21,508 nucleotides of DNA. It comes from Pseudomonadota bacterium. Its GTDB lineage: Bacteria > Bdellovibrionota > FAC87 > UBA2466. The stretch is from the NCBI GenBank assembly GCA_043767805.1, contig JAYUGC010000177.1, forward strand, positions 1 through 21,508, given 5' to 3'. Within the stretch, counting starts at the first letter, position 1, and every line of letters starts with the position of its first letter. Positions 11,152 through 19,554 of the stretch are shown piece after piece. Both the position numbers and the translations under genes were made by a program. The notes under the pieces were generated by a model. The model did no database searches. It saw only the letters and a program-made list of their open reading frames with translations, and was not told the origin of the DNA.

Positions 11152-11901
11152 ATGAAACGTTTGGCACTCGTCGCGCTGGCTCTAACGAGCGGTTTGGTTC
11201 TGTTGCTCTCTTTGCGAGCGGGCCGGTCTTACGACGGCTACAATTACGCGTCTTGGTGGCAGAAGCGCGTCAATCGAGGCGGGAAGGCCAATTTTCCCAC
11301 CTGCGGTCAAAAGGCCGATGCGTCTTGGAACGTGACCGACCTTTCCGGCACGCGACTCCTGCTGTCGTCTTACTGGCGGGAAAAGCCCCTGGTTCTGGAG
11401 TTCGGCAGCCTGTCCTGCCCCATCTACCAGGACAACGGCCACTCCATGGAGGATCTTTTCTCCGAGTTTCAAACGAGAGCGAACATTGCTCTCCTCTACA
11501 CGCGCGAGGCCCATCCGGGATGGATACGATCCTCGCTGACCTCGGACGCGGAAAAACTCGCCAGGGCGCGGCAACTCCCGCACAAAGGCATACACCGTCT
11601 CATTTTAGTCGACGATATCGCGGGCACCATTCATCGATCTTTGGGCGCCTATCCCAATTCAGTGGTCGTCATCGGCACGGACGGCGCCATCGCTCATTTC
11701 GCGGTTTGGAATCAGCCCGTGCGCACCCGCGAAGTGCTAAAGAAGCTCCTCGACGGTAAACGTCCCGCCTGCCAAGCCGATCTGGAAACTCAGCCCGTAC
11801 ATCTCGGCTGGTTCGGTAACCTCCGCATGCTGACCGCCATAAATTGGGTCGGCGGAACGGACGCCTTTTTCGATTTTCTGAGCTACCTCATATCGGGTTG
11901 A
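11152..11901 (+). CDS. Iodothyronine-deiodinase-like thioredoxin-fold (redoxin) protein with N-terminal anchor/signal
   Basis: KPLVLEFGSLSCP, LLYTREAHP, VDDIAG and GAYPNSVVVIGTDG. ATG 11152 begins a signal-like MKRLALVALAL segment. Confidence 0.75.
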   Translation: MKRLALVALALTSGLVLLLSLRAGRSYDGYNYASWWQKRVNRGGKANFPTCGQKADASWNVTDLSGTRLLLSSYWREKPLVLEFGSLSCPIYQDNGHSMEDLFSEFQTRANIALLYTREAHPGWIRSSLTSDAEKLARARQLPHKGIHRLILVDDIAGTIHRSLGAYPNSVVVIGTDGAIAHFAVWNQPVRTREVLKKLLDGKRPACQADLETQPVHLGWFGNLRMLTAINWVGGTDAFFDFLSYLISG

Positions 11902-11921
11902 GCCGGCTTCAATCAAGCGCC

Positions 11922-14900
11922 TTAAGAGTTCGCCTCGACGAGGCGAAGCACCGCTTCGCCGTAGCGAGCGACGAGCTTCGGACCGAGGCCCGAGACTTCG
12001 AGGAGCTCGGGCTCGGACGATGGTCTCACTTCGCAAATCCCCTTTAGCACGGCGTCGGTGAGGACGCGGAAGGCGGGCATCCGCTTTTTCCGGGCTTCGC
12101 CCAGCCGCCACTCCTTGAGCGCCGCCAAGAGCCCAGGGGTCGCCGCGGGTGAGCCTGGCTTGCGGTGCCGGCGTCGCTTCGTGCCGCCGCGGGTCTCCGT
12201 CGACGAGCGGCTCTTGCGCGGTTTGCGACGAGCTTTGACTGCTTTGTCTCTGACCTGAAACTTCGCAAGATCGTCGCCGGTCGCTTTCTCGCCGGCGTCC
12301 GACAGGAACACTTTGCGGAAGGCAATGGTCTGGCCTTCCTTCTGAAAGCTTTCGTGTTGAATTTTGAGCCATCCCTGGGCAACGAGCCCCGAAAGAATGT
12401 TCTCGAACTCTTTGCGATCCACCGGCTCGCCGGTGTCGCTCAAGTCTTGGTGAAGCCGGCCGACCGCGTAACCCTGCCGGTGCGAGACGACCGACAGGAT
12501 GCGAATGGCGATGGCCTGCTCTGCTACCGTCGCTTGGTGACGGGCCGCTTTGAAGCCGCAATCGGAAGGCTGGCACACGTCGCAAATACCGCAGGGCTCG
12601 CCGGAATCATTTTGATCGCCGAAATGCTCGACCAGGTAGCGCATGCGGCATTGATGGCCGTCGGTAAAGGCGATAATTTGGCGAAGCTGCAAGAGGCGAT
12701 GCTCGCGTTGATCGAGATAAGGCTTTTCCCAGTCGTCCGTGCCCCGCACCACGTTCTCTTCCGGATCGATAATCGCACCCTTATGAATCCACAGCTTGTC
12801 GATGGCCCGCTCGAAAGTCTCGTCGTCAAGGGACCGAATCTGGCTGCGTAACGCATCCTTAGCGATTGCCTTGTCGGAAAGCTCCCGATGGATTTTTCTC
12901 AAGACCAAAGGATCCGGATAAGACTTCTCGAAGAAAAACTCGTGCGTTTTTCGGTCGGCGAAAGCGTGAAAGAGCACCGCGCGCGAGGGCTTCCCGTCTC
13001 GTCCCGCGCGGCCGATCTCCTGATAGTACCCCTCGACGCTGCCGGGAAGCGCCGCGTGCACCACGGTGCGGACGTTCGCTTTATCGATCCCCATCCCGAA
13101 GGCGATGGTCGCGACAATCACCTCGAGATCGCCCCGTAGGTAGCGCTCCTGCACTCGCTCTCGCGCTAGAGCCGACATGCCGGCGTGATACGCTTCGGCC
13201 CGAAACTTTCGAGCGAGCGTGTCGGCGAGGCTGTCGGCGATTTTTCTAGTCGGCGCGTAGACAATGGCGGGAAGCCTTCCCTCGCCTTTGAGCAGCAATG
13301 CTATCGCGTCGGGCCGCTCGGCCGTGCTGAGCTCCGCGAGCTGAATGGCGATGTTCGTCCGTCTAAAGCCGTGAATGGACTTGAGCCCCCGGCGAAGCCC
13401 GAGCTGGCGCGCGATATCTTGCTGCACGAGCGGAGTCGCGGTCGCGGTCAAAGCGATGACGGGCGCCGGGCGAAACTCCCCGAGGCGCTCCCCGAGCAGA
13501 CGATAATCGGGCCGGAAATCATGCCCCCAGTGGGAGATGCAGTGGGCCTCGTCGATGGCGATGAGCGAAATCGGCCGCTTTTGCAACATCTCGGTAAAAC
13601 CGCGAACGCCAAGGCGCTCGGGCGCGATGAAAAGAAAATCGAGTTTCCCCGCGAGGTACTCGTGGCAAACCGCGCGCGATTCCTCGCGCTTACGGCCGGA
13701 GTGAATCCGCTCGGCGGCAAGCCCGGCTCTTTGCAGCTTCTCGACCTGGTCGTCGATAAGCGCGACGAGCGGGCTGATGACGAGCGTGGTCCCTCCGCGT
13801 GCAAGACCCGGAAGCTGATAGCAGAGCGATTTTCCCGCGCCCGTCGGCATGACGAGCAAGACGTCTTTGCCCTGGGTGACCGCGCGGCACACTTCCTCCT
13901 GGTGCGGCCGAAAAGAAGTGAATCCAAAGACGTCTTTCAACAGAGCTTTGGGGTCACGATTGCGACTGCCTGAGTCCACCCGTTTCGCTAAAGACGGTTG
14001 CGGACGTGAAGCCTCCGGCGCTTCCGATCGAGGGGCAGGACGGGGTGACGGGGAAGCCGAAGGCGGGCGAGGCTTGTGAGGCGGCGCGGCCTTCACCACT
14101 TCTTCCACCCGCTCGCGGATTTCCTTTTCGAGAGCGCCCATGAACTCGGCGAGCGTCCGCTTACCCGCTTGGATTTGCCCGAGCTCTTTTTCCCAGCGTC
14201 CCGTGAGCTCCGCGCTTTTTACCGTCGGATGAACGGTATCGATAAGCCGGCTTCCGAGCTCGGTCGCCCGCAAAAGTTTGCCGTCTCGGGCGAGGTACCC
14301 TCGGCGAAGCAGCGCCTCGATGATTCCCGCACGCGTGGCCGCGGTGCCGAGGCCGGAATCCCGCATCGCGAGCCGGAGCTCGCGGTCCTCTAAATTTCTT
14401 CCCGCGCTTTCCATCGCGGCCAGAATCGAAGCGTCGTTTAAGAAAGGCGGCGGCCGCGTGACTTTTTTCAGCGGTTTCACGTCGGCTACATCGACCGCGA
14501 CGCCCGTCGCCAGGGACTCGGGTAAAAGGAGAACGGCGGTATCCGCTTCTCGCTTCGTATCGCCGATTTCGAGAGCCTTCCAGCCTCTCTCGACGACGAG
14601 TGTTCCTTGCGTGCGAAAGTAATCGGCGGGAGTGGCGAGCGTCAGCACGGTGGTGACCGCCGTCACGTAGTCGCCTTGCCATAGGGCAAGAAGACGGCGG
14701 CAAATCAGATCGTAGATATTTCGCTCGTCCGCGGTGAGCCGGGCCGTTTGCGCTCGCACGTCCGTCGGCAAGATAGCGTGGTGATCGCTGACTTTCGAGT
14801 CGTCCACGTAACGCGTGCTCAGGGACTCGAGACCCGTCTCGGGACGAAGCAGAGCCTTATACGGGGCGGAGATCGCCGCCACGATCCCCTTAAGCGTTTG

Positions 14901-15887
14901 CTCGACGGTTTTTGAAAGATGACTCGAGTCCGTGCGGGGATAACTGATGAGTTTATGGCGCTCGTAGAGCGCCTGCGCGACTTCCAAAGTTCTCGCCGCG
15001 GAAAGACCAAAGAGCCGGTTCGAATGGCGCTGCAGCTCGGTCAAATCATAGAGAACCGGGGGCGGCTGCCGCACGTTGCGCGACTCGAGCTTTTGCACCC
15101 GCGCGGCCGCCTTTTTCACGCGGTCAGTGATTTCACTGGCGAGCTTCCCGTCGGGAGGAAGCCTTGCGGTCCGCGAGGCACCTGGATCGTCTCCTAGAAA
15201 AAGTCCTGTGTAGGAAGCCTCCCCCAACCCGAATTTTCCTTCGAGCTCGATGTAGTCTTCGGGCTTGAACGCCTCGATCTCCCGATCGCGTTTCACCACG
15301 AGCGCCAAAGTCGGCGTCTGTACGCGGCCCACGAAAAAGCGATCCCCGTGGGTAATCGCGTAAGCCCGGGACAAATTCATGCCTACCAGCCAGTCCGCCC
15401 GGCTTCTCGCTCTCGCGGCGTCGGCGAGCGAATCGTAGCGCGACGCTTCCTTCAGATCCTTCATACCCGCGCGGATCGCGTCGGGAGTCAGCGAAGAGAT
15501 CCACAAGCGGCGGACTTTTTTGCGGCAGTGGGAGGCCTCGTAGATATAGCGGAAGATGAGCTCGCCCTCGCGCCCGGCGTCCGTCGCGCAGATGACGTCT
15601 GCGCACTCAACCAAGAGTTTTTTGACGACCTTAAACTGATCTTGAGTCGCTTCCACCACCTTCAGCGGCCAAGTGGCGGGGAGCATCGGCAGCGACGACG
15701 TGCGCCAAACTTTCCATTCCAGCGAGATTTCGTGGGGCTCGGGCAGAGTGACGAGGTGGCCTATGGCCCAAGTGACGACGTAGCCGTTCCCGCTGAGGCT
15801 TCCTTGGCGCGACTGAGTGGCCCCCACCACCCGAGCGATATCGCGGGCCACTGAGGGCTTTTCCGCGACGATCAAGGTGTCTGGCAT
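11922..15887 (-). CDS. DNA topoisomerase III - RecQ helicase fusion (TOPRIM/Topo IA + RecQ core + RQC + HRDC)
   Basis: Topo IA part: AEKPSVA, ATDAGREGE, GRVQTPTL, ISYPRTDS (catalytic Tyr) and GLGTAATR. Pro-rich linker. RecQ part: MPTGAGKS, DEAH, TATA, ATIAFGMGID, QEIGRAGRDG, Zn site CRM...CGICDVC, and HRDC LKEWR...PAFRVLTDAVL. One uninterrupted ORF. Confidence 0.95.
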   Translation of the reverse strand: MPDTLIVAEKPSVARDIARVVGATQSRQGSLSGNGYVVTWAIGHLVTLPEPHEISLEWKVWRTSSLPMLPATWPLKVVEATQDQFKVVKKLLVECADVICATDAGREGELIFRYIYEASHCRKKVRRLWISSLTPDAIRAGMKDLKEASRYDSLADAARARSRADWLVGMNLSRAYAITHGDRFFVGRVQTPTLALVVKRDREIEAFKPEDYIELEGKFGLGEASYTGLFLGDDPGASRTARLPPDGKLASEITDRVKKAAARVQKLESRNVRQPPPVLYDLTELQRHSNRLFGLSAARTLEVAQALYERHKLISYPRTDSSHLSKTVEQTLKGIVAAISAPYKALLRPETGLESLSTRYVDDSKVSDHHAILPTDVRAQTARLTADERNIYDLICRRLLALWQGDYVTAVTTVLTLATPADYFRTQGTLVVERGWKALEIGDTKREADTAVLLLPESLATGVAVDVADVKPLKKVTRPPPFLNDASILAAMESAGRNLEDRELRLAMRDSGLGTAATRAGIIEALLRRGYLARDGKLLRATELGSRLIDTVHPTVKSAELTGRWEKELGQIQAGKRTLAEFMGALEKEIRERVEEVVKAAPPHKPRPPSASPSPRPAPRSEAPEASRPQPSLAKRVDSGSRNRDPKALLKDVFGFTSFRPHQEEVCRAVTQGKDVLLVMPTGAGKSLCYQLPGLARGGTTLVISPLVALIDDQVEKLQRAGLAAERIHSGRKREESRAVCHEYLAGKLDFLFIAPERLGVRGFTEMLQKRPISLIAIDEAHCISHWGHDFRPDYRLLGERLGEFRPAPVIALTATATPLVQQDIARQLGLRRGLKSIHGFRRTNIAIQLAELSTAERPDAIALLLKGEGRLPAIVYAPTRKIADSLADTLARKFRAEAYHAGMSALARERVQERYLRGDLEVIVATIAFGMGIDKANVRTVVHAALPGSVEGYYQEIGRAGRDGKPSRAVLFHAFADRKTHEFFFEKSYPDPLVLRKIHRELSDKAIAKDALRSQIRSLDDETFERAIDKLWIHKGAIIDPEENVVRGTDDWEKPYLDQREHRLLQLRQIIAFTDGHQCRMRYLVEHFGDQNDSGEPCGICDVCQPSDCGFKAARHQATVAEQAIAIRILSVVSHRQGYAVGRLHQDLSDTGEPVDRKEFENILSGLVAQGWLKIQHESFQKEGQTIAFRKVFLSDAGEKATGDDLAKFQVRDKAVKARRKPRKSRSSTETRGGTKRRRHRKPGSPAATPGLLAALKEWRLGEARKKRMPAFRVLTDAVLKGICEVRPSSEPELLEVSGLGPKLVARYGEAVLRLVEANS

Positions 15888-15893
15888 CCCTCC

Positions 15894-15922
15894 AAGTTAA
15901 CTAGCCCGGCTTCTCCCGTCAA
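15894..15922 (-). promoter_or_regulatory. Sigma70-type promoter of the topoisomerase-RecQ fusion (probably leaderless)
   Basis: Minus strand TTGACG (15922-15917), 17-bp spacer, TAACTT (15899-15894), then 6 nt to the ATG. Confidence 0.6.
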
Positions 15923-16359
15923 AGTTCGTGGGGAGCGCGTTGGCCCGAGTATTAGTGAGTCGGCACGTCGGTCGCGGGGGCTTTCGAGTGGGAAGGCTCG
16001 ACGGTCCCCGGCTTATCCTTTTCGCATTCGGGACCGAAAATCGTGTAGGTACCGGTCATTACCGCGCTGGCTGCGGCACGAGCTGCCTTCGAAGTGGCGC
16101 ACGCGTTTTCCGTATGCGTAGAAGGAGGAACGGAATTTTTTGAGGATCGCCTTTTGGGCGACGGTCTCGCATTTGAGGGGCGAGGCGAAAGAAACAGTAG
16201 AAATCGCCAAAAGAATCACGAGAGACAGAACGCCGCATCGGTAAAACCCACCCGAGCCAGAGTAGACCGAATTGTGAAGCTCAAGTAGCCAGGATATCTG
16301 CCGCCCGCCTCGTCGCTCAACGCCTCGAGGCGCGTCTTTCCCATCGGTATCTCCTCTCG

Positions 16360-17718
16360 CTATTTCGACTTGCGGCGGGGAGTATCGCCGAGTTTTCGAC
16401 TCGCTCTGGCGCAGAGATCGGTGGCGGCCTCGGGCCAGCTGGCTCGGATGGTATAGGTTTTCCCGAACGTTCGTGCGTAGGACTTCTCTTCTCCGCCGTA
16501 TCTTTTGCTTTCGAGTGAAACCTCGCCCGGCAAAATAAATCCCGCGCGAGCCACGGAATCTTCGAATTGGGAGTAGTAGTGCTCGGCCCAGCCGTCGTAT
16601 TCCTTGGGGGAAAGCCAGGACGGAGCATTGAGGGTGGGATTGTGACCGAGGGGCCAAATTTCGTGGGTTACCAGGCGGCCCTCCGTCACCCAGGGATAGG
16701 GGAACTCCTTGCGAAGGTCTTTGGCTGATTTCCCCCAAAGAGGCACGGCATGGGAGTTTATCACCGTAAATTCTTGCAGGTCCCGAATGGCGATGCGCCC
16801 GGTGGGGACCAGCTTCTTGCCCTCTCTTCTCATCTCGATCAAGTAGTTCTGACCATGAGGAGAAAGCGAGGTCAGTCCATAGCGAGCGAAAAGATCCGCA
16901 TTGGCTCGGGCCAGGGGCTCAATGAAATGCTTTTTCCAATATTCCGCCGGGTTGTTGCTTCCGTTGCTTTTGGCGATGGCTTTCCCCAGCTTATTGTCGA
17001 AAGCGGAGAAAGCGGGAAGGTATTCGAATTCCTTCGAGAGAAGAGGGTCTAGTGAACGAATCGCTAAGCCCTGGGACATCCAGGGCCGTTGGGTGAAGGC
17101 CTCGTTCAGCCCGAAGGCCCCTACCTCGGGGAAGAGAACCAGGTGGGGAGAAGGGTTCTGTACCAGCTGCTGTTGCAAGAAATCAGAAATTCTCCTGGCC
17201 ACCCTCGCCTCGTCGATTTGCAGACTCTTTTTTTCCCGCTTCCCAAGCAAGTGGTTCGTAGCCACCTTGGCTGAAAAGAGGGCCTCCGAATTGGGATCGC
17301 GAACAATGAGACTGCGGGACGCGGTGTACCACCCTTCAAAGTATTTTTTGGGCCGGAGCGAGATCTTTTGTTCCTTGGCATACAACGCGATTAGTTCAGG
17401 AAGGCGGGTGTCCTCCGGATGGACGATCCAGCGGAAGTATTTCTTGCCGGCCTTTTCGAAAATCAGGGATTGGAGAACTTCCGGTGGCATGGAGGCGGAG
17501 ACGTCTTGATAGATGAACTCCAAAGGGATCTCGTAGTGGGTGAGCGCCACCGCGGGCTCCTCGCGGCCGCGGCCGTTATTGGCCTGATTCTCCCATTCCA
17601 CCAACGTTCGCACTGCGGCGGGCTCGGACCAGCAGGAAGAGGCAAGAAAGACCGCAAGGAGGAGAAGCCCCTTGAGCGCCAGTGAAATCAGCTTGAACTG
17701 GCGTTGAGTGGCATTCAT
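16360..17718 (-). CDS. Exported protein with IucA/IucC (NIS synthetase)-like motifs
   Basis: IVHP, TASRSL, SAKVATN, HGQNYLIE and IRDL follow the order seen in IucA/IucC-like folds. Hydrophobic signal-like N-terminus from ATG 17718. Confidence 0.55.
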   Translation of the reverse strand: MNATQRQFKLISLALKGLLLLAVFLASSCWSEPAAVRTLVEWENQANNGRGREEPAVALTHYEIPLEFIYQDVSASMPPEVLQSLIFEKAGKKYFRWIVHPEDTRLPELIALYAKEQKISLRPKKYFEGWYTASRSLIVRDPNSEALFSAKVATNHLLGKREKKSLQIDEARVARRISDFLQQQLVQNPSPHLVLFPEVGAFGLNEAFTQRPWMSQGLAIRSLDPLLSKEFEYLPAFSAFDNKLGKAIAKSNGSNNPAEYWKKHFIEPLARANADLFARYGLTSLSPHGQNYLIEMRREGKKLVPTGRIAIRDLQEFTVINSHAVPLWGKSAKDLRKEFPYPWVTEGRLVTHEIWPLGHNPTLNAPSWLSPKEYDGWAEHYYSQFEDSVARAGFILPGEVSLESKRYGGEEKSYARTFGKTYTIRASWPEAATDLCARASRKLGDTPRRKSK

Positions 17719-17886
17719 GGATGCAATACGGAGGTATAGGAATGATAAATTATCAGCAATCAACCCACCAGAGCCGCTTATGGCGCAGTGGCCCACCTGC
17801 GGACTTCACTCCACGAAAAATTCAGTTCAGGCGTACAACTACGAGGGTCGTGCCAACAGTACCGCCGGAGGTGCTAAACTATCCGA

Positions 17887-18873
17887 GTGTGTAGTGTAAA
17901 ACGATTACTTCTCATCGTCTTGGCAGCTTCCGGGTGGGTCTTGCCGGCCGCCGCGGAACCCCGCCCTGACTCTCCCCTAAAAGAGAGCGTTCCCTATCAG
18001 GTTAGTATCGGATGGCGCGAATTATCAGGACCGGCCACGCTCACTTTGCGAGACGGCGTCTACCACCTAAAAGCAAAAGTCGGATTCATCGGAGCGGGCC
18101 TGTTCGCCAGAACCACACCAAAGCTCGTGCAGAAAGCGGCTCATCTCAGCGAGCCACCCCCCAAAGAAAGATTCGTAAAAGGGGAAACGTCCTTCGAGAA
18201 CGTGCCGGCCGTGCGTCAGCGACTCACGGAGCTCACCACCGAAATTGGCACGTACTACGAGACTCCATTTTTCAAGCTGGAGCTGGAGCCGGTTTTTCTA
18301 GATGAAAAAAAGTTACTCTCCGATGAAGACCGCTTGGAGAAAAACTATGGAATTTATCAGTCACGGCTCTTCGATGCCATGGCTCGATACGTGACTACAA
18401 GCCCGGAGGCGGTACCCATTCTCGTGCCGGCCATTCCCAACCAACAGATAATTACGCCGACGATTTGGGACCTGGACGCGCCCACCGTGCTGCTGGCCCA
18501 TGAGGTCGGTCATCTTCTTGGGACTCACACCGAAGGCTACGAGCTGGAAGATTACCCGGCCAACGGGCTTATGAATGACGAGTTGGTTTTCAGGGAGTTG
18601 GCCAAGGAGGGACTCAAGCCGGTCTTCTTGCGGTCGGACTTTAATGAAATCATGCGGGCGCTGCTAGAAAGAGCAAAGCCAAAAATCGCGAAGGGAAAAA
18701 TCATGAAGGCTTTTTCTCCCACCAGCGAAATTTACGCGAACGACTCTGCGGAAAACTACTGGCAACTTACTCAAGAAGGGCGCCTCGAGTGGGCGAGGGA
18801 AAAAGTGAGGCGGTTTAAGCTCTCCAGCGATTGCGGCCCGAGCTGGCAAAAGGTCGGCTCCGAAAAGGGATAA
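17887..18873 (+). CDS. Secreted zinc metallopeptidase (HExxH, metzincin-like)
   Basis: Signal peptide, LAHEVGHLLGTH (HExxHxxGxH) and a downstream LM Met-turn (NGLMN). Extended -10 TGcTAAACT lies 6 nt before the GTG. Confidence 0.7.
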   Translation: MCSVKRLLLIVLAASGWVLPAAAEPRPDSPLKESVPYQVSIGWRELSGPATLTLRDGVYHLKAKVGFIGAGLFARTTPKLVQKAAHLSEPPPKERFVKGETSFENVPAVRQRLTELTTEIGTYYETPFFKLELEPVFLDEKKLLSDEDRLEKNYGIYQSRLFDAMARYVTTSPEAVPILVPAIPNQQIITPTIWDLDAPTVLLAHEVGHLLGTHTEGYELEDYPANGLMNDELVFRELAKEGLKPVFLRSDFNEIMRALLERAKPKIAKGKIMKAFSPTSEIYANDSAENYWQLTQEGRLEWAREKVRRFKLSSDCGPSWQKVGSEKG

Positions 18874-18990: not shown

Positions 18991-19299
18991 CTACCGCATC
19001 AAGGGCAGAGGCAAGCCTTCGGATATGGCCACTTTTTTCTTCAGCCGCTCAATTTCCCGTTCCATTTTCTCCAAGCGCGTCTCCATCGCTTCTTCTCCCT
19101 TAAGGGCCTCTTTCAGAATCTGATTGAGGAGCCTTTGGTAGGGCACGCCGGTCTTATCCGAACGGGTCCTAAGGCGGTTCAGACTTTCCTGATCGATATT
19201 GATCGTGATCTTCACCTTGCTGCTCTTCGCTGCCGACTTACGCATAAGACGGGTTCCATTCGTATCGATAGTAAGACTATTTAACTTGGGCTGTCTCAT
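18991..19299 (-). CDS. brnA: BrnA/CopG-like ribbon-helix-helix antitoxin
   Basis: KVKITINIDQESL...GVPYQRLLNQIL motif, AGGAGA RBS before ATG 19299, overlaps the end of a brnT-like toxin. Confidence 0.75.
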   Translation of the reverse strand: MRQPKLNSLTIDTNGTRLMRKSAAKSSKVKITINIDQESLNRLRTRSDKTGVPYQRLLNQILKEALKGEEAMETRLEKMEREIERLKKKVAISEGLPLPLMR

Positions 19300-19554
19300 A
19301 GAGTCTCCTGAACTTTCTCCAATTTCCGCTTCCAATGATCCTGATTTTTGAACTCCGGCGGGTGAAGCAGGTCGTCAATACTTTCCCCGACATCGTCTTT
19401 CCGACCCAGTAGAGCCGAGGTTCCTGATTGGAATGTTTCTCATCGCTCAACAGCACGCTCCTGGGATCAGAAAAGTCTCCGTAGCCTCCAGGAACGTGAC
19501 CCCATGCTGCCTGATGTTCTTAGATTCCTTGGTGAGGTCCCATTCGAAGTCCAC
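19277..19554 (-). pseudogene. brnT: BrnT-family ribonuclease toxin, frameshifted
   Basis: GTG 19554 gives MDFEWDLTKESKNIRQHGVTFLEATETF. Adding one base at the A4 run (19471-19474) continues as xDPRSVLLSDEKHSNQEPRLYWVGKTMSGKVLTTCFTRRSSKIRIIGSGNWRKFRRLYETAQVK*. Span is 278 bp, one short of 93 codons. Confidence 0.8.

Follow-up and report, generated by a model that had tools for sequence, protein, structure and literature searches.

What does a bacterium gain from carrying a complete topoisomerase III and a complete RecQ helicase in one polypeptide chain? This question is raised by a gene at positions 11922..15887, on the minus strand, of a stretch of 21,508 nucleotides (hereafter the window) that represents contig JAYUGC010000177.1 of genome assembly GCA_043767805.1, from a bacterium of the Bdellovibrionota. 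RecQ helicases and topoisomerase III (Topo III) cooperate from E. coli (RecQ and Topo III) to humans (BLM and Top3a) and, to our knowledge, they are the one helicase-topoisomerase pair known to cooperate. The hand-off of DNA between a RecQ helicase and a type IA topoisomerase is still debated. The gene joins covalently two known enzymes with an established partnership, in an arrangement that is undescribed and whose distribution is wide though patchy. By analogy with the separate enzymes, its product is probably a flexibly tethered RecQ-Topo III decatenase or dissolvase.

The gene is a single open reading frame (ORF) of 1321 codons with an ATG start and zero internal stops, and a GGAGGG hexamer resembling a ribosome-binding site abuts the ATG (15888..15893). 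These features, and all those of the gene given below, lie on the minus strand. A preliminary description of the window had recognized in this ORF a full type IA topoisomerase followed by a linker, a RecQ helicase, a basic patch and an HRDC domain, and this domain order was borne out by Pfam and NCBIfam as well as by structure models. The topoisomerase half begins with a Toprim domain (residues 4-132, 15492..15878; PF01751, 51 bits), which holds E9 and, within the motif TDAGREGE, D103 and E107. It continues with the topoisomerase IA core (Topoisom_bac, residues 151-583, 14139..15437; PF01131, 350.7 bits), in which the motif SYPRTDS and the alignment with E. coli Topo III place the codon of the catalytic Tyr316 at 14940..14942. 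A disordered linker rich in proline, serine and alanine follows (residues ~598-647, 13947..14096), with 13 Pro, 8 Ser and 7 Ala among 50 residues. The RecQ half comprises helicase lobe 1 (DEAD, residues 660-818, 13434..13910; PF00270, 95.6 bits), with the Walker A K686 and the DEAH box at 779-782, and helicase lobe 2 (Helicase_C, residues 867-965, 12993..13289; PF00271, 75 bits). Between lobe 2 and the zinc-binding domain lies a subfamily-specific insertion that carries the motif LWIHGG (residues 993-1050, 12738..12911). The zinc-binding domain itself (RecQ_Zn_bind, residues 1059-1106, 12570..12713; PF16124, 35 bits with a cut-off of 25) contains Cys1080, Cys1099, Cys1102 and Cys1105, and is followed by a winged-helix, RQC-like domain (residues 1116-1209, 12261..12542), by a basic Lys/Arg patch predicted to be disordered (residues 1218-1243, 12159..12236) and by the HRDC domain (residues 1252-1317, 11937..12134; PF00570, 60.4 bits).

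Both halves pass the cut-offs of their NCBIfam families. For the topoisomerase half (residues 4-611) these are the Topo III models PRK07726 (641.3 versus 597) and TIGR01056, topB (541.2 versus 515.75), and for the RecQ half (residues 649-982) the RecQ family model TIGR00614, recQ_fam (391.7 versus 219.8). The strict RecQ equivalogs TIGR01389 and PRK11057 are missed by the fusion (497.7 versus 640.2 and 391.8 versus 1015), and the Pfam scan gave no RQC match, the winged helix being recognized at the fold level alone. The topoisomerase half aligns with E. coli Topo III over residues 3-605 (E 1e-90). The segment of the E. coli enzyme at ~502-519, which we take to be its decatenation loop, is aligned in the fusion with one gap of a single residue. 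The helicase core aligns with residues 13-345 of E. coli RecQ, and about 65 residues are added relative to that protein between the core and the zinc cluster. In the acidic motif TDAGREGE of the Toprim domain (residues 100-109, window 15561-15590), a glycine replaces the second aspartate of the DxD signature; the corresponding motif is DPDREGE in TopA of the same genomes and DPDREGQ in E. coli Topo III. The possibility that this glycine is a trait specific to the fusion was rejected, given that the second aspartate is also missing in 26 of 26 ordinary stand-alone Topo III proteins compared (25 Gly, 1 Ala).

The fold of each half was evaluated with two AlphaFold2 models, one of residues 1-1200 built with a 120-sequence alignment (model 1) and the other of residues 976-1321 (model 2). 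The predicted local distance difference test score (pLDDT) of model 1 is 90.3 and falls below 50 only at residues 604-635, within the linker, and at 788-790. In Foldseek searches the topoisomerase half matches E. coli Topo III with target template-modelling scores (TM) of 0.87 for 1d6m and 0.83 for 2o19 at ~31% identity, the RecQ half matches RecQ catalytic cores with a TM of 0.71, and no solved chain spanning both halves was found (top query TM 0.45). Model 2 (pLDDT 88.5) contains in order the insertion, the zinc region, the winged helix, the disordered patch (pLDDT below 50 at 1231-1246) and the HRDC domain. The insertion is predicted to form three helices and a beta-hairpin, and is winged-helix-like by its secondary structure. 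Matches to the winged helix and the HRDC domain took up the broad fold search made with this model. The predicted winged helix (model 2 residues 141-234) matches winged-helix proteins with Z values of 10-12, residues 139-346 of model 2 match BLM 1071-1286, and the HRDC domain matches that of E. coli RecQ, 1wud, with Z 14.6 and a root-mean-square deviation of 0.9 over 74 aligned residues.

A protein search was made across 5.8 billion proteins, from which the best 120 matches, with the query among them, were taken. All of them share the architecture of the window's protein at 51-62% identity and ~1250-1480 residues, and the HRDC domain is found in 117 of the 120. The preliminary description had considered all catalytic motifs to be intact, and this was found to extend to the whole set: D103, E107, the Tyr316 of SYPRTDS, the Walker A K686, the DEAH box at 779-782 and the four cysteines of the zinc cluster are invariant in the 120 fused proteins, while E9 is invariant in an alignment of 24 sequences and conserved in at least 90% of the 120. 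The linker varies from 15 to 168 residues (median 41.5) across the 120 homologues, with a composition of 18.5% Pro, 15% Ala and 11% Ser. Its predicted disorder and its variation in length fit the role of a tether. The basic patch has a net positive charge in 23 of 24 homologues. Natural variants devoid of the HRDC domain, both fused and stand-alone (P0036, P0044 and P0097; G217, G127 and others), end after the basic patch.

The integrity of the gene across the linker, for which the preliminary description had proposed a check of coverage, was assessed with Logan assembled contigs (not raw reads) of three runs of one study; two of these runs, X1 and X2, possibly represent the source sample. In both X1 and X2, contigs span 13532-14193 with 0 differences each, in run X3 the region is bridged by two contigs that overlap each other (13527-14020 and 13951-14173), and no insertions or deletions at the linker are listed in the contigs of any of the three runs. 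The continuity of the frame through the linker is thus upheld. The genome (4.52 Mb in 204 contigs) has an estimated contamination of 2.8%. The contig of the window has a GC content of 0.5755, compared with 0.5789 for the genome, and ranks 89 of 161 in tetranucleotide distance, and the fusion gene lies at the 94th percentile for GC and the 67th percentile for GC at third codon positions among long frames. Recent horizontal transfer, considered on the basis of composition, is unsupported, since the gene is unremarkable in composition and its contig resembles the rest of the genome.

Two irregularities were observed in the same contig data. The summed contig depth rises to 69-150x at 15466-15606 and to 14-17x at 13492-13632, from a background of ~6-8x and with many loose ends. 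The bins of these spikes contain the most conserved motifs, namely the Toprim TDAGREGELIFRY and the DEAH box, and the spikes probably arise from contigs of homologues of other organisms in the same metagenomes. At 13530-13809, one contig in each of X1 and X2 skips 278 bases of the helicase lobe and has only 27 letters on its shorter flank; rather than a deletion variant, it most likely represents a related organism or is chimeric.

The fusion is not confined to this genome. In the window's own phylum, the Bdellovibrionota, at least four of 301 genomes carry a fused frame (G000, the genome of the window, together with G294, G087 and G017), with two further rows being ambiguous. Among the Acidobacteriota a fused frame was found in five of 201 genomes, with one more ambiguous, and among the Myxococcota in 23 of 201 genomes (frames of at least 1200 residues, one of them with an internal TAA); the searches of these two phyla were a stricter first look and their counts are lower bounds. 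The suggestion of the preliminary description that similar fusions may occur in myxobacteria-like genomes proved correct. Named records with the fusion include, among others, Solibacteraceae, Bryobacterales, Polyangiaceae and Oligoflexus, and the source names of the hosts are those of soil, sediment and freshwater lineages. The records name the protein only as "DNA topoisomerase 3" or as "RecQ family (ATP-dependent DNA) helicase".

Trees were computed of the topoisomerase half (89 rows, a quick IQ-TREE run under LG+G4) and of the RecQ half (90 rows). In the topoisomerase tree, all 44 fused halves and 14 short database proteins with only the topoisomerase form one clade (Shimodaira-Hasegawa-like approximate likelihood ratio test, SH-aLRT, 100), many of the 14 being annotated as "partial", so that some may be truncated or split copies. 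This clade excludes 26 of 26 ordinary stand-alone Topo III proteins of the same phyla. A single clade set apart from ordinary Topo III fits an architecture that arose once.

In the RecQ tree, the fused halves form one clade with a group of stand-alone proteins, here called long RecQ, against canonical RecQ (SH-aLRT 99). The long RecQ proteins have ~680-750 residues, show 42-57% identity across the whole RecQ half, and share with it the insertion, the winged helix, the basic patch and the HRDC domain. They are found in Bdellovibrionota, Acidobacteriaceae, Myxococcota and one genome of the Ktedonobacteraceae (loci L014-L020, L031, L033-L039, L043, L091 and L109-L128). The stand-alone forms are nested among the fused ones, with at least seven changes forced by well-supported branches. 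Monophyly of the stand-alone forms was rejected by the approximately unbiased (AU) test (difference in log-likelihood 463.6, p 2.3e-5), for which the group was defined by architecture, but after inspection of the tree. At 17 stand-alone long RecQ loci, the 1.5-6 kb upstream contained no Topo III. These trees would be read most simply as a single fusion event, after which the topoisomerase module was lost repeatedly, with some transfer between phyla. The state before the fusion may be represented by a basal stand-alone clade of the Myxococcota, the genomes of which sometimes carry an unlinked ordinary Topo III (G539, G563 and G694). Given that two fused proteins, L041 and L042, are the deepest and have long branches in the RecQ tree, and are placed elsewhere in the topoisomerase tree, the fused state is not claimed to be ancestral to the whole long RecQ clade. 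Groupings match between the two trees, with the window's protein (P0001) and P0002 as sisters in both and the same 14-member clade recovered. This congruence indicates that the halves have co-evolved and have been kept together under selection.

A flexibly tethered decatenase or dissolvase is favored because the fused enzymes are a known cooperating pair and because the architecture appears to have been selected with its active sites intact. All the biochemistry and the cellular role proposed here are drawn from E. coli RecQ and Topo III and from BLM/Sgs1-Top3. By this analogy, the RecQ half would load on branched or gapped DNA by means of its winged helix, basic patch and HRDC domain, and its ATP-driven 3'-5' unwinding would expose single-stranded DNA. 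The tethered Topo III would then cleave one strand through Tyr316, pass another through the break and reseal it. In this manner hemicatenanes, converging replication forks, precatenanes and double Holliday junctions could be unlinked with no crossovers. The covalent tether would take the place of recruitment by SSB, as in E. coli, or by RMI1 and the N-terminus of BLM or Sgs1, as in eukaryotes. Of the two functions proposed in the preliminary description, the decatenase or dissolvase stands as the best inference from these precedents. The ATP-dependent supercoiling enzyme has lost ground, because the linker is disordered and variable (15-168 residues) and because conservation of the RecQ half does not differ between fused and stand-alone proteins.

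The comparison with known systems makes clear what is shared and what is new. E. coli RecQ and TopB, working with SSB, belong to the same enzyme families, with matching alignments or folds for the topoisomerase, the RecQ core and the HRDC domain. The chemistry expected of the fusion is also that of this pair, in which single-stranded DNA made by the helicase is passed by the type IA gate, so that DNA is catenated or decatenated or converging forks are resolved; work of Suski and Marians (2008) reportedly bears on this chemistry. In E. coli, however, the two are separate proteins, whereas here a disordered linker connects them within a single chain, and we know of no stable RecQ-Topo III complex in that organism, where SSB is needed. 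The topoisomerase half of the fusion also differs from E. coli Topo III in that it has no C-terminal tail of its own and in that it carries DAGREGE where the E. coli enzyme has DPDREGQ. The RecQ half differs from E. coli RecQ in belonging to a distinct clade, with the insertion of ~65 residues before the zinc cluster and the basic patch before the HRDC domain. In eukaryotes, the contact between helicase and topoisomerase is mediated by RMI1 and by the disordered N-terminus of the helicase. The BLM/Sgs1-Top3-Rmi1 dissolvasome resembles the fusion in that a RecQ helicase with an HRDC domain is physically joined to a Topo III-type enzyme, with dissolution free of crossovers as the presumed role, but there the two proteins are held together non-covalently, by the N-terminus of the helicase and by RMI1, whereas in the fusion the connection is a peptide bond. 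Stand-alone long RecQ, finally, is of the same clade as the RecQ half and similar to it over its whole length, but has no Topo III module.

Several observations weigh against a tethered decatenase or dissolvase as the role of this protein. No fused frame was seen in any of 32 further genomes from the family of the window, that of the same genus among them, and the fusion, being patchy, does not serve a core function. Seven of seven tested genomes with a stand-alone long RecQ are devoid of Topo III and have only a topA-like gene. Furthermore, when 44 fused and 37 stand-alone proteins were compared, the RecQ half was found equally conserved in every window of 15 residues except 1031-1045, within the insertion, where conservation is 0.70 for the fused and 0.55 for the stand-alone proteins. 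Given this equal conservation and the absence of Topo III from the genomes of the stand-alone orthologues, this subtype of RecQ is able to function in the absence of Topo III, and its coupling to the topoisomerase may not be essential. No conserved neighborhood was found at seven loci (the window and six other fused loci), so that the surroundings give no hint of a pathway. The predicted TM-score (pTM) of 0.64 obtained for residues 1-1200 neither demonstrates nor rules out a fixed arrangement of the two halves.

The alternatives that draw on these same observations differ in how closely the two activities are coupled. A docked ATP-driven machine akin to reverse gyrase, in which the RecQ motor is rigidly coupled to the Topo III gate and, beyond the mere presentation of single-stranded DNA, introduces or removes supercoils or drives directional strand passage, is improbable, and less likely than the tethered decatenase or dissolvase. 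In reverse gyrase, too, a helicase-like module of superfamily 2 (SF2) is naturally and covalently fused to a type IA topoisomerase, the shortest linkers of the present family have only ~15 residues, and the pTM is a little higher than might be obtained for two free halves. However, the domain order is reversed, with the topoisomerase first in the fusion, and the helicase is a genuine RecQ, bearing a zinc cluster, a winged helix and an HRDC domain, in place of the helicase-like domain of reverse gyrase. The long linker is disordered and its length differs by a factor of ten among homologues, and the hosts belong to soil, sediment and freshwater lineages and are not hyperthermophiles. The reverse gyrase model TIGR01054 gives 108.5 for a cut-off of 471.7, matching only residues 79-591, in the topoisomerase part. 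The LWIHGG window is the only part of the RecQ half under extra constraint when fused, and its motif W1033/H1035/G1037/R1048/G1049 is intact (at least four of five positions) in 37 of 44 fused but in only 9 of 37 stand-alone proteins, which speaks for docking. This difference was nevertheless not significant when phylogenetically independent pairs were compared (7 usable pairs, p ~1), and the motif is a lead only as a candidate interface. A predicted complex of topoisomerase residues 1-600 with RecQ residues 975-1205 (24-row alignments, no controls) gave two scores of 0.00 (mark 0.32), which weigh neither for nor against docking. It is also unlikely that the fusion is a mesophilic counterpart of reverse gyrase in reversed order, in which a mechanical coupling of RecQ to the Topo III gate, perhaps by way of the LWIHGG insertion, would serve ATP-driven directional strand passage (unlinking or supercoiling), with one origin, a spread over three phyla and repeated dismantling by loss of the topoisomerase module. 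At the other extreme, the fusion would secure only co-expression and a 1:1 stoichiometry of two independent enzymes, with no hand-off between them. The long, disordered and variable linker, a RecQ half as conserved in stand-alone as in fused proteins, the repeated loss of the topoisomerase module with stand-alone forms nested among the fused, and the seven genomes devoid of Topo III are all as expected from such independence. It remains rather unlikely, given that an architecture of single origin persists over three phyla with its halves co-diverging, and that the fused pair is precisely the one already known to cooperate.

Two other explanations set aside a role in housekeeping DNA transactions or the gene itself. 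A component of a mobile element or an anti-phage system, such as the DpdF-like helicase of the Dpd 7-deazaguanine restriction cluster, is suggested by the PADLOC-DB profile PDLC02865 'DpdF' (1499 positions), which matches the whole protein with 1431 bits and the topoisomerase half alone with 650 bits at profile positions 28-676; a distribution that is patchy even within the window's family would suit such a component. PADLOC profiles have no cut-off and rely on gene context, and this profile covers the full architecture of the fusion, with the topoisomerase at 28-676, the RecQ at 748-1343 and the HRDC domain at 1414-1497. It was evidently built from proteins of the fusion architecture, and its label, the name of a helicase of the Dpd defence cluster, most likely arose because RecQ-like sequences were clustered together and probably does not fit. 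The NCBIfam equivalog for DpdF, NF041063, gives 207.9 for a cut-off of 550. No Dpd or defence gene is near the fusion, none of the 16 neighboring ORFs of the window is matched by PADLOC models, and the genes around the window's fusion and six other fused loci are unrelated and share no synteny, with one IstB-like gene at a single locus. Together with the unremarkable composition of the gene and a contig typical of its genome, this makes a defence role very improbable. The chance that the fusion is an artefact, either two neighboring genes merged by a sequencing error or a contig of another organism in the bin, is close to negligible. The assembly is fragmented into 204 contigs with some estimated contamination, and the genome of the same genus has no fusion, but the frame is intact in a further 119 protein clusters and across dozens of genomes, where it sometimes lies on a megabase contig, and the contigs of three runs bridge the linker in a window whose GC and tetranucleotide composition are those of the genome.

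No published description of a Topo III-RecQ fusion was found in a full-text search, with subscription journals and supplements lying outside it. The abstract of PMC7245102 states that hyperthermophiles have "uniquely" fused helicase and topoisomerase units, as reverse gyrase, and in the available portions of PMC8185306 and PMC2647321 reverse gyrase is the only helicase-topoisomerase fusion named. In PMC10969213, "RecQ" has 0 occurrences and the sole helicase domain mentioned is that of reverse gyrase. The fusion corrects the statement in the abstract of PMC7245102 that presents reverse gyrase as the unique fusion of both units. In public annotation, the architecture is hidden behind "DNA topoisomerase 3", "RecQ family helicase" and the PADLOC name "DpdF".

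A natural single-chain form provides independent evidence, from gene fusion, that the partnership of RecQ and Topo III is ancient and has been selected in bacteria. It also offers a one-protein system of fixed stoichiometry for structural and single-molecule work, with natural controls built in, namely linkers of 15-168 residues, variants devoid of the HRDC domain and lineages without the topoisomerase module.

Type IA topoisomerases are encoded twice in the genome of the window, by the fusion and by topA (825 residues; TIGR01051, 805.6 bits). Because the other type IA gene is topA, there is no stand-alone topB in the genome, and the fusion is its only Topo III. One further RecQ-family gene is present (544 residues, with DEAD, Helicase_C, zinc-binding and HRDC domains), so that, with regard to the stand-alone copies that the preliminary description had proposed to look for, topB is absent and a second RecQ is not. 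A single GyrA/ParC-family gene (C140:51492-52811) was observed in this genome and no Topo IV was found; nearly all of 33 sampled relatives of the family likewise have a single GyrA/ParC-family gene, which is a trait of the lineage. A missing Topo IV was considered as the reason for the fusion and rejected, given that most of the relatives that lack the fusion (n=33) also have a single gene of this family.

The preliminary description had also assigned the gene a promoter of its own, for which no support was found. A consensus scan of 11500-16500 gave 0 promoter-like sites, where 0.9 would be expected by chance. The 125-nt gap that separates the fusion gene from the upstream ORF on the same strand holds only a weak TTGACG-17 nt-TAACTT.

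The neighboring genes in the window are related to lipid metabolism, or encode a sulfatase, a MAPEG protein and a deiodinase-like protein, together with unknowns, and the neighbors at the six other fused loci are unrelated metabolic and transport genes. On the upstream side, the fusion gene is adjoined by ORFs at 16013-17796 (minus strand) and 17887-18873 (plus strand), of 241, 478 and 328 residues, the first two of which overlap; none of the three has a match in Pfam or PADLOC. Further on, at 18991-19335 (minus strand) and 3 kb from the fusion gene, an ORF of 114 residues has weak Pfam matches to CopG/BrnA antitoxin-like families (27.2 and 25.1 bits, just below the cut-off) and is possibly the remnant of a toxin-antitoxin system.

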